In this document: positions 47,057 through 48,002 of the stretch, in pieces
Layout: every line of letters starts with the position of its first letter
Position numbering within the stretch: the first letter of the stretch is position 1
Sequence record: PZ179882.1
Source: a phage
Reading direction: 5' to 3' (one strand)
DNA length: 64,000 nucleotides
Notes under the pieces: model-generated
Told to the model about the DNA's origin: nothing
The model's input: the letters and a program-made list of their open reading frames with translations, nothing else
The model's database searches: none
Program-made: the position numbers and the translations under genes

Positions 47057-47132
47057 TGGTCGAGGCAGTAGGGATCGAACCTACGACCTAGGACTTAGAA
47101 GGTCCTTGCTCTTCCTTCTGAGCTATGCCCCG
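47057..47132 (-). tRNA. tRNA-Arg (anticodon UCU)
   Basis: Hand-folded cloverleaf: acceptor CGGGGCA/TGCCTCG, anticodon loop CTTCTAA, T-loop TTCGATC, CCA encoded. Confidence 0.8.
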
Positions 47133-47138
47133 TAATTG

Positions 47139-47211
47139 GGTGACCGATGGGAGTCGAACCCATGACTACGAGAATCACAATCTCGAGTTCTACCAACTGA
47201 ACTACGGCCAC
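47139..47211 (-). tRNA. tRNA-His candidate (anticodon GUG), CCA not encoded
   Basis: Acceptor GTGGCCG/CGGTCAC, anticodon stem CGAGA/TCTCG with loop TTGTGAT, T-loop TTCGACT, discriminator C; the 3' flank is CAA rather than CCA and position -1 is U. Confidence 0.6.
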
Positions 47212-47325
47212 ATTAATACCTACTCCAACAATCAAGATGTCTTCACACGAAATTAAGAGAAGAGTGATCAGTTCAACCCCTATAATCGCGTCAAGTAGAT
47301 ATTAATGTGACAGTTGTCACAAATT

Positions 47326-47400
47326 TGGCGGACGTGATAGGATTCGAACCTATAACCAATCGCTTAACAGGCGATCGCTCTGCCATTGAGCTACACATCC
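47326..47400 (-). tRNA. tRNA-Asn (anticodon GUU)
   Basis: Acceptor GGATGTG/CACGTCC, anticodon loop CTGTTAA, T-loop TTCGAAT, CCA encoded. Confidence 0.7.
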
Positions 47401-47404
47401 AAAT

Positions 47405-47491
47405 TGGTGGGGAGTGATGGAGTCGAACCACCCGAGTCGCAATGACAATGGATTTACAGTCCACACCGCTACCTCTACGGGATAACTCCCC
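47405..47491 (-). tRNA. tRNA-Tyr (anticodon GUA), long variable arm
   Basis: Acceptor GGGGAGT/ACTCCCC, anticodon loop CTGTAAA as in bacterial tRNA-Tyr, 87 nt, CCA encoded. Confidence 0.7.
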
Positions 47492-47503
47492 TAATTCGTA
47501 ATT

Positions 47504-47578
47504 TGGTGGCCCTGGGTGGAATTGAACCACCATCTGGCGATTATGAGTCGCTTGCTTGAACCTTCCAGCTACAGGGCC
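47504..47578 (-). tRNA. tRNA with CAU anticodon (Ile2-type or Met)
   Basis: Acceptor GGCCCTG/CAGGGCC, anticodon stem-loop GCGA-CTCATAA-TCGC resembling lysidine-type tRNA-Ile2; CCA encoded. Confidence 0.7.
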
Positions 47579-47579
47579 T

Positions 47580-47655
47580 TGGTGCTGATTGACGGAATCG
47601 AACCGCCGACCTTCTCATTACAAGTGAGTTGCTCTACCTACTGAGCTAAATCAGC
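47580..47655 (-). tRNA. tRNA-Thr (anticodon UGU)
   Basis: Acceptor GCTGATT/AATCAGC, anticodon loop CTTGTAA, T-loop TTCGATT, CCA encoded. Confidence 0.75.
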
Positions 47656-47660
47656 AAAAC

Positions 47661-47750
47661 TGGCGGAGGCGATAGGATTTGAACCTATGAGTCGCCGGAG
47701 CGACTGCCGGTTTTCAAGACCGGTGCATTAAACCACTCTGCCACGCCTCC
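47661..47750 (-). tRNA. tRNA-Ser (anticodon UGA), long variable arm
   Basis: Acceptor GGAGGCG/CGCCTCC, anticodon stem CCGGT/ACCGG with loop CTTGAAA, 90 nt. Confidence 0.8.
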
Positions 47751-47752
47751 AG

Positions 47753-47826
47753 TCTCCGTGGCAGGATTTGAACCTACGACATTCTGCTCCCAAAGCAGAC
47801 GCTCTACCAAACTGAGCTACACGAAG
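47753..47826 (-). tRNA. tRNA-Pro (anticodon UGG), CCA not encoded
   Basis: Acceptor CTTCGTG/CACGGAG, anticodon loop TTTGGGA; abuts tRNA-Ser, like the classic T4 Pro-Ser dimeric precursor. Confidence 0.75.
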
Positions 47827-47836
47827 TAAATTAAAT

Positions 47837-47910
<74 letters not shown>

Positions 47911-47915
47911 AAATT

Positions 47916-48002
47916 TGGTGCGAGAAGTGGGACTCGAACCCACAAGGAAATCATTCCGCAGCATTTTAAGTGCTGTGCCTTTACCAATTTGACCATTCTC
48001 GC
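47916..48002 (-). tRNA. tRNA-Leu (anticodon UAA), long variable arm
   Basis: Acceptor GCGAGAA/TTCTCGC, anticodon stem CAGCA/TGCTG with loop CTTAAAA, 87 nt. Confidence 0.75.

Follow-up and report, generated by a model that had tools for sequence, protein, structure and literature searches.

A phage family of tRNA-His genes without the encoded G-1 residue, and a shortened 3' C run in one of its members

Can a phage tRNA-His gene that encodes neither the additional 5' guanosine, G-1, nor a complete CCA end still serve as a tRNA gene, or is it a relic? The question is raised by a locus in a phage DNA stretch of 64,000 nucleotides (record PZ179882.1), the whole of which is called the window here. 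A preliminary description, made from the sequence alone, pointed there to a candidate with a clean cloverleaf, the anticodon loop TTGTGAT and the discriminator C73, in which position -1 is U and the 3' flank reads CAA in place of CCA. It proposed that such a tRNA, if functional, would need unusual maturation, and that otherwise the locus is a decaying or tRNA-like element. The features considered below are collected in Table 1.

Table 1. Positions of the tRNA-His gene and of the associated features in the window
Feature	Position	Strand	Basis
tRNA-His(GUG), G1 to C73, 73 nt	47139..47211	-	ARAGORN, Rfam, 80.3% identity to E. coli tRNA-His, covariation (n=16)
Position -1, U (G-1 in canonical bacterial tRNA-His genes)	47212	-	sequence; T at -1 in relatives
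tRNA-His positions 74-76, C-A-A	47136..47138	-	1-nt gap relative to UTI-E4
114-nt spacer accompanying tRNA-His	47212..47325	-	spacer alignment across genera; covarying pairs
Module of spacer and tRNA-His, about 190 nt	47136..47325	-	Tequatroviruses have all of it or none
Ten tRNA genes: Leu, Gly, Pro, Ser, Thr, Met(CAU), Tyr, Asn, His, Arg	47057..48002	-	ARAGORN; Rfam; UTI-E4 order
tRNA-Pro, second cluster gene without encoded CCA	47752..47826	-	sequence; ARAGORN and Rfam ends

The locus is a genuine tRNA-His(GUG) gene and its register is correct, not off by one. ARAGORN predicted tRNA-His(gtg) at 47138..47211 on the minus strand, and the Rfam tRNA model RF00005 matched 47139..47211 over its full length with 65.1 bits (E = 2.3e-13; gathering score 29), a score in line with those of the neighbouring tRNAs. 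Both programs agree on the register, in which G1 lies at 47211, C72 at 47140 and C73 at 47139. The acceptor stem has 7 bp (GUGGCCG/CGGUCAC); its 5' strand is followed by UA and the D arm GUUC-AGUUGGUA-GAAC, then by the anticodon arm CGAGA-UUGUGAU-UCUCG with the anticodon G34 U35 G36, the variable loop UAGUC and the T arm AUGGG-UUCGACU-CCCAU. Upstream of G1 there is U at -1 and A at -2, and downstream of C73 the sequence continues C-A-A-U-U-A, tRNA-Arg starting at 47132.

The register and the fold were evaluated on the tRNA-His genes of 17 additional phages in GenBank and of about ten contigs in IMG/VR, which gave 16 distinct sequences. Cloverleaf pairing holds in 98.8% of cells, against 84.9% in shuffles; changes on both sides were found in 12 of the 21 pairs, covariation is present in all four helices (pair 7:66, for instance, alternates between G:C and U:A), and none of 500 shuffles reached the observed covariation score. 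When the 3' partners were slid by -1 or +1 column, pairing among the 16 members fell to 51.5% or 40.8%, and slides of one to three columns gave 30-52%. A register in which G47211 serves as G-1 is out, as it produces a U7-U66 mismatch, leaves one base before the D stem and, being a one-column slide, cuts pairing from 98.8% to 41-52%. The single-sequence minimum free energy (MFE) fold of tRNA-His is non-cloverleaf and insignificant (z = -1.68), which is usual among tRNAs. Because such single-sequence folds of tRNAs usually fail, the covariance model and covariation were used instead, and both back the GUG cloverleaf. The structural part of the preliminary description was thus borne out by ARAGORN, Rfam and the sequence itself: the cloverleaf, the anticodon loop and C73 are as described, and U at -1 and CAA in place of CCA are both present in the standard register. 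It had suggested covariance-model scoring and alignment with other T4-like tRNA-His genes as checks, and had named a misplaced acceptor stem or a better fold with another anticodon as what could overturn it. Scoring confirmed a full-length tRNA, the alignment has U-1 in all 16 distinct family members, the pairing figures exclude a misregistration by one nucleotide, and no better fold with a different anticodon was found.

The gene itself is known and ordinary, and annotations already routinely call it tRNA-His. Eight tRNA genes precede it and one follows it in a Tequatrovirus (T4-like) cluster of ten, which is matched by 979 phage records and is 99.3% identical to Tequatrovirus genomes, e.g. 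those of Shigella phage S2_01 and Escherichia phage UTI-E4. The annotation of the latter, to which the window is about 97% identical, lists these ten tRNA genes in this order. Besides the C-run difference in tRNA-His discussed below, the sole indel within the cluster relative to UTI-E4 is a 3-nt insertion (CGT) at about 47497, in the Met-Tyr spacer. In tRNA-Pro, the discriminator A is followed by CU and then by tRNA-Ser, so that the gap between the two genes is two bases, and this arrangement resembles the classical Pro-Ser dimeric precursor of T4. Three plus-strand matches to 'Plastid-ycf2 5UTR' (47506-47578, 47582-47655 and 47918-48002) were discarded, as they are sub-threshold Rfam hits antisense to tRNA genes. 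Relative to the eight tRNAs of T4, the additions of this cluster are Tyr, Asn and His. The added Tyr and Asn (47326-47491) and His, all on the minus strand, are three of the four Q34 (UQU-loop) targets of colicin E5; the phage tRNA-His retains the U33-G34-U35 motif, which may hint at a role against nucleases of Q34 tRNAs.

The absence of G-1 is real, conserved and common to the whole family, and is not specific to this copy. T at -1, G1:C72 and C73 occur together in 16 of the 16 distinct family members, which come from Tequatrovirus, Moonvirus (Merlin), Karamvirus, Jiaodavirus (KMI13, Merci, PKO111), Kagamiyamavirus (EcS1), Gelderlandvirus, Kanagawavirus (PEi20), Mosugukvirus (PM2) and Cinqassovirus (Ah1), and also from Erwinia phage COW86c, the Vequintavirinae phage KB57 and mycobacteriophage Bxz1. 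The family is spread over at least ten Straboviridae genera, a Vequintavirinae phage and Bxz1, whose relatives are the 160 Mycobacterium phage records matching this tRNA-His. When E. coli tRNA-His was used as the query, about 370 phage records, mainly from enterobacterial hosts, matched over most of its length, and in the T4-like matches listed the alignment leaves out G-1, starting at query position 2 or beyond. Invariant in the family are G1:C72, U2:A71, G3:C70, C73 and loop positions 32-36 and 38, including the whole anticodon G34 U35 G36; A37 is present in 15 of 16 members. The window carries the family features, namely the 5' half GUGGCCGUAGUUCAGUUGGUAGAAC, U-1, G1:C72, C73, and an upstream spacer (roughly 35-115 nt in the family) with a leader of the GAGUGAAUAUUGAU type, and its tRNA-His body is identical to those of UTI-E4 and L043. 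The alignment indicates that the family is under selection as tRNA, in a pattern that fits use by the synthetase and the ribosome. The gene is nevertheless accessory, as only about a quarter of Tequatrovirus clusters have it. In one T4-like contig (L123, IMGVR_UViG_2706796299_000001), tRNA-His bears A37G, the T-loop change C56A and two stem mismatches, and this copy is probably decaying.

The tRNA-His gene of Bxz1 (L142, 202-275), a phage of cluster C1, also lacks G-1, and its 5' half (GTGGCCGTAGTTCAGCCGGTAGAAC) is almost identical to that of the coliphage gene; mycobacterial tRNA-His has G-1 (PMC6582537). Genes without G-1 were also found in eight unrelated phage contigs of IMG/VR (L004, L015, L047, L055, L066, L080, L089 and L114), among them contigs of 106 kb and 314 kb, with T at -1 in all of them and C73 in nearly all. 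Since these contigs are unrelated, the absence of G-1 is not confined to T4-like phages. In a literature search of limited coverage we found no description of phage tRNA-His without G-1, and its family-wide loss is apparently an undescribed departure from the histidine identity rule.

The missing CCA has a different distribution. With an 81-nt query over the 3' end of tRNA-His, the best full-length GenBank match was 98.8% over 82 nt with one gap, and no gapless full-length match was found among GenBank phage records. The alignment with UTI-E4 puts the gap in the C run, relatives reading CGGUCAC-C-CCA-AUUA and the window CGGUCAC-C-CA-AUUA. The run at 47138-47140 has three C here, compared with four (C72 C73 C74 C75) in the relatives, which have C73-CCA, and no CCA is encoded after the discriminator in this gene. 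The exact three-C variant in this sequence context is absent from IMG/VR, metagenome contigs, GTDB genomes and GenBank phages. The three-C state as such is present also in mycobacteriophage Bxz1, in Erwinia phage COW86c, where it is private to one record, and in Aeromonas phages Ah1 and AsFcp_2, which have it in common; neighbouring tRNAs in Ah1 and COW86c all encode N73-CCA. As Ah1 and AsFcp_2 share the state at 100% identity, it is real and heritable there, and its presence in COW86c, Ah1/AsFcp_2 and Bxz1 suggests that the change from four C to three is recurrent and evidently tolerated. In the window, the missing CCA reads as a private one-base shortening of the C4 run, by either a sequencing error or a private mutation. 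The two anomalies, presented together in the preliminary description, are thus both there, but they do not make one syndrome, as the CCA loss is private and the G-1 loss family-wide.

To the possibility that the missing C is a homopolymer error of sequencing or assembly, the true genome reading CAC-C-CCA, we would give slightly less than even weight. Such an error would concern only the 3' end, and it is compatible with the explanation of the whole gene that we favour below. It would account for a single-base difference in a run of four C that no other record among GenBank phages, IMG/VR, metagenome contigs and GTDB genomes has in this context, and the three-C variant of COW86c is likewise confined to one record. 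On the other hand, the window is not generally error-ridden, as a comparison with the 97%-identical UTI-E4 over roughly 40 kb shows no more than about four homopolymer indels of one base, and the case of Ah1 and AsFcp_2 indicates that three C can be a real, inherited state. If the base call is wrong, the G-1 question alone remains. As regards annotation, the missing CCA in this genome is trivial and should not be over-read.

If the shortening is real, the host CCA-adding enzyme could repair the CCA-less tRNA-His, by analogy with the T4 tRNAs without encoded CCA (the Pro and Ser precursors), whose maturation involves RNase BN and the CCA-adding enzyme of the host. The cases are alike in that a phage tRNA gene in a similar type of cluster has an incomplete encoded CCA, tRNA-Pro of the window being an example; they differ in that the lack of CCA in tRNA-His is not a family trait but a one-base change private to this genome. 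The unusual maturation proposed earlier would therefore be dispensable at the 3' end, where trimming and the host CCA-adding enzyme should suffice.

In every genus examined, tRNA-His is preceded by a spacer, mostly of about 95-115 nt and of about 35 nt in PEi20, and the gene before this spacer is tRNA-Gln, Asn or Thr, depending on the phage, with the leader of the GAGUGAAUAUUGAU type. Comparison of the spacers (loci L126-L141, positions about 110-207) revealed a conserved 5' leader of the GAGURRAUAUURAU type and, about 15-30 nt upstream of G1, a short and weak hairpin of 4 bp with four covarying pairs. The leader variant of the window, GUAGGUAUUAAU, and its 114-nt spacer are common to UTI-E4. 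Directly after tRNA-Asn, at 47306-47321, there is a near-perfect palindrome, UGUGACAACUGUCACA (TGTGACA-AC-TGTCACA), whose GTCACAT half is kept in the spacers of Karamvirus, Gelderlandvirus and Erwinia phages. No promoter- or terminator-like site was found on the minus strand within the 114-nt spacer, and the spacer has no Rfam match to a known RNA family. The spacer may be a processing signal. The module of spacer and tRNA-His is bounded by tRNA 3' flanks of the CCAAAUU type. It is absent in T2, RB14 and many others, in which Asn is directly followed by Arg, and about 184 records align as Asn/Arg only. No protein gene is linked to the module, the indel relative to T2 consisting of the spacer and the tRNA alone.

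How the gene without G-1 arose is suggested by a survey of phage tRNA-His in IMG/VR and the fetched loci. Of the 56 genes containing G-1, 46 carry T at -2; all 21 genes without it carry T at -1, and 20 of these 21 carry C73. Because T stands at -2 in the former and at -1 in the latter, the G-1-less gene looks like a canonical U-2 G-1 G1 gene from which one G of the G-1/G1 doublet has been lost. Special selection for U at -1 is not demonstrable, as T at -1 is the background in other phage tRNAs (69% of 620) and is also explained as the former U-2.

The same residues bear on 5' processing. U-2 and G-1 favour cleavage by RNase P between -2 and -1, and pairing of G-1 with C73 makes the canonical site less favourable (PMC5499578). 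The determinant of the -2/-1 cut, U at -2, is lacking in the phage gene, which has A at -2 and U at -1; since no G-1 is encoded, neither this cut nor an 8-bp acceptor stem is expected. Host RNase P would most likely cut at the ordinary site between U-1 and G1, because U-1 provides the usual context and there is no G-1:C73 pair to shift the cut upstream. This would give a mature tRNA-His with pG1 as its first residue, a 7-bp acceptor stem and no G-1. A C73/U294 mismatch with RNase P RNA could affect the cut position, and this counts against the explanation that we favour.

A tRNA of this kind poses a problem for charging. The Tequatrovirus tRNA-His is 80.3% identical to E. coli tRNA-His over 76 nt and resembles the hisR type in the cloverleaf, the GUG anticodon, C73, the pairs G1:C72, U2:A71 and G3:C70, and the D loop. 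The canonical bacterial tRNA has G-1, whereas the phage gene has U at -1 and, in this genome, a CCA one C short. Loss of G-1 reduces charging by E. coli histidyl-tRNA synthetase (HisRS) more than 100-fold in vitro (PMC5499578, PMC3064791), and the earlier premise that bacterial HisRS normally needs G-1 is fair for HisRS of the E. coli type (PMC5499578, PMC3064791). The phage tRNA-His is thus predicted to be a poor HisRS substrate, and its sequence offers no obvious compensation. Alpha-proteobacterial tRNA-His (Caulobacter, the SAR11 group) is also of bacterial type and without G-1, and RNase P cleaves its precursor at +1, but it has A73 and U72, in contrast to C73 and C72 of the phage tRNA, and is served by a co-evolved, anticodon-dependent HisRS (PMC3064791). 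No such synthetase would be expected for the phage tRNA in the hosts named in the records (Enterobacteria, Aeromonas and Mycobacterium); for the phage hosts E. coli, Klebsiella, Aeromonas and Mycobacterium, the tRNA-His described is the canonical one with G-1 (PMC5499578). In phages of hosts with canonical HisRS, the missing G-1 is moderately surprising.

The other known solution is completion of the tRNA by Thg1. Eukaryotic and archaeal tRNA-His genes of this kind are likewise without G-1, and C73 of the phage tRNA could template addition of G by an archaeal-type enzyme. The difference from these systems, and from phages that encode Thg1, is that no Thg1-like gene was detectable in T4-like phages by tblastn of phage records with yeast Thg1. 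E. coli is not known to have Thg1. The search used one eukaryotic query, which still detected phage homologues 22-29% identical to it in a collection with hundreds of T4-like genomes. It matched 131 phage records, from Bacillus phages, some mycobacteriophages of about 110 kb, Caulobacter phages, jumbo Erwinia and Yersinia phages, and others; Escherichia, Klebsiella and Shigella are not among the ten commonest organism names. Mycobacterium phages gave 11 Thg1 matches, against the 160 records of the Bxz1 type that match this tRNA-His. Neither known escape route, a co-evolved HisRS or Thg1, is visible for the phage tRNA-His.

The explanation that we consider probable on balance, taken as a whole chain, is that the locus encodes a working accessory tRNA-His that is cut at +1, completed at its 3' end and charged at reduced efficiency. 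The tRNA would be transcribed within the polycistronic tRNA cluster. Its 3' end would be as encoded if the base call is wrong; otherwise, host exonucleases or RNase BN would trim the trailer back, and the CCA-adding enzyme of the host would restore the end. Host HisRS would then charge the G-1-less tRNA by means of C73, the top of the stem and the anticodon, presumably less efficiently than the host's own tRNA-His. The product would supplement the tRNA-His pool of the infected cell, possibly at times when host tRNAs of the Q34 family are depleted or cleaved.

One departure from this chain would be a nucleotide at -1 in the mature tRNA, either U-1 left by RNase P or G-1 added by an unrecognised phage or host activity. 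With U-1 retained, the 5' phosphate would be in place for HisRS; no exception to U-1 was seen (21 of 21), and the GAGUGAAUAUUGAU-type leader, with the small covarying hairpin before it, is strictly conserved too. The HisRS of Aeropyrum pernix takes A or C besides G at -1 (PMC9976931), and the invariant C73 could template a G, as is outlined for archaeal-type Thg1 (PMC9508852). Nevertheless, we consider such a nucleotide improbable, as U-1 makes the site look like a canonical RNase P site, is background in 69% of phage tRNAs and is unable to pair with C73. Moreover, T4-like phages have no detectable Thg1-like gene, and no protein gene accompanies the module.

Another possibility is that efficient charging is not what the tRNA is made for. 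It would instead be a decoy or sponge that occupies a host nuclease directed against tRNA-His or the Q34-family tRNAs, or a regulatory uncharged tRNA. This would fit the poor charging predicted for a G-1-less tRNA, and also the composition of the cluster, whose extras over T4 are three of the four colicin E5 targets. These targets share the UQU anticodon-loop motif (PMC1635277), and phage tRNAs are known to counter tRNA-cleaving defences (PMC11555353). The invariance of C73 and of the top of the acceptor stem, however, is what recognition by a synthetase would call for and not what an anticodon-loop decoy needs, and the known phage tRNAs that rescue the infection act by restoring translation. 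We therefore give this possibility little credence.

For the three-C variants (the window, COW86c, Ah1 and Bxz1), the 3' sequence can also be parsed as stem-CCA-AUUA, that is, CCA without a preceding discriminator. The CCA after C72 would then be the true end, and G1:C72 would mimic G-1:C73, restoring the acceptor end for HisRS on a helix one base pair shorter. These variants, this window included, may accordingly represent a second step, in which C73 has also been lost and the terminal G:C beside CCA recreated. CCA stands exactly after the stem in all four cases, all neighbours in Ah1 and COW86c are N73-CCA, both members of the extra pair are missing in comparison with the canonical gene, and HisRS charges microhelices with G-1:C73 (PMC9976931). 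Hundreds of relatives, however, have four C and a normal C73-CCA, and a 3' strand one nucleotide shorter than that of any normal tRNA should impair use by EF-Tu and the ribosome. The CCA-adding enzyme takes its measure from the body of the tRNA and should restore C73-C74-C75-A76. In Bxz1, CA after C73 could be due to chance (1 in 16), as the neighbouring tRNA-Glu has no encoded CCA. Taken as an account of these variants, such a shifted end is in our view very unlikely.

Finally, that the gene is a decaying pseudogene or a tRNA-like relic without function, as might be concluded from the missing G-1, the CCA also disrupted in this genome, its dispensability (it is absent from T2, RB14 and others) and the relative L123 mutated in the anticodon loop, T loop and stems, is highly improbable in view of the strong covariation and near-perfect pairing over at least 12 phage genera, the invariant identity positions, a body equal to those of UTI-E4 and L043, and an Rfam score like those of its neighbours. 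With 98.8% pairing in the family and 12 of 21 pairs compensated, the gene is not a decaying element. The suggestion of decay in the preliminary description finds no support in a family conserved across so many phage genera with abundant compensatory changes.

The explanation of a working accessory tRNA-His has a broader form, according to which a big family of G-1-less phage tRNA-His, spanning at least ten Straboviridae genera, Vequintavirinae and cluster C1 mycobacteriophages, takes part in translation in hosts whose HisRS is considered G-1-dependent. In this general form we regard it as rather unlikely. If it is true, the rules derived in vitro would greatly underrate how well HisRS of the E. 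coli type accepts such tRNAs in vivo; alternatively, infection would alter HisRS specificity, or an unknown non-Thg1 activity would supply the nucleotide at -1. G-1 is treated as a near-universal identity mark of tRNA-His, the exceptions depending on a co-evolved synthetase (in some alpha-proteobacteria and some protists) or on Thg1. Here, a tRNA-His that lacks it and is under selection is carried by phages that infect E. coli, Klebsiella, Enterobacter, Aeromonas and Mycobacterium, hundreds of which have been sequenced. If this tRNA is charged and used, the histidine identity rules of E. coli would be looser in vivo than thought, or altered by the phage; if it is uncharged, the phages would keep a tRNA for a non-decoding purpose.
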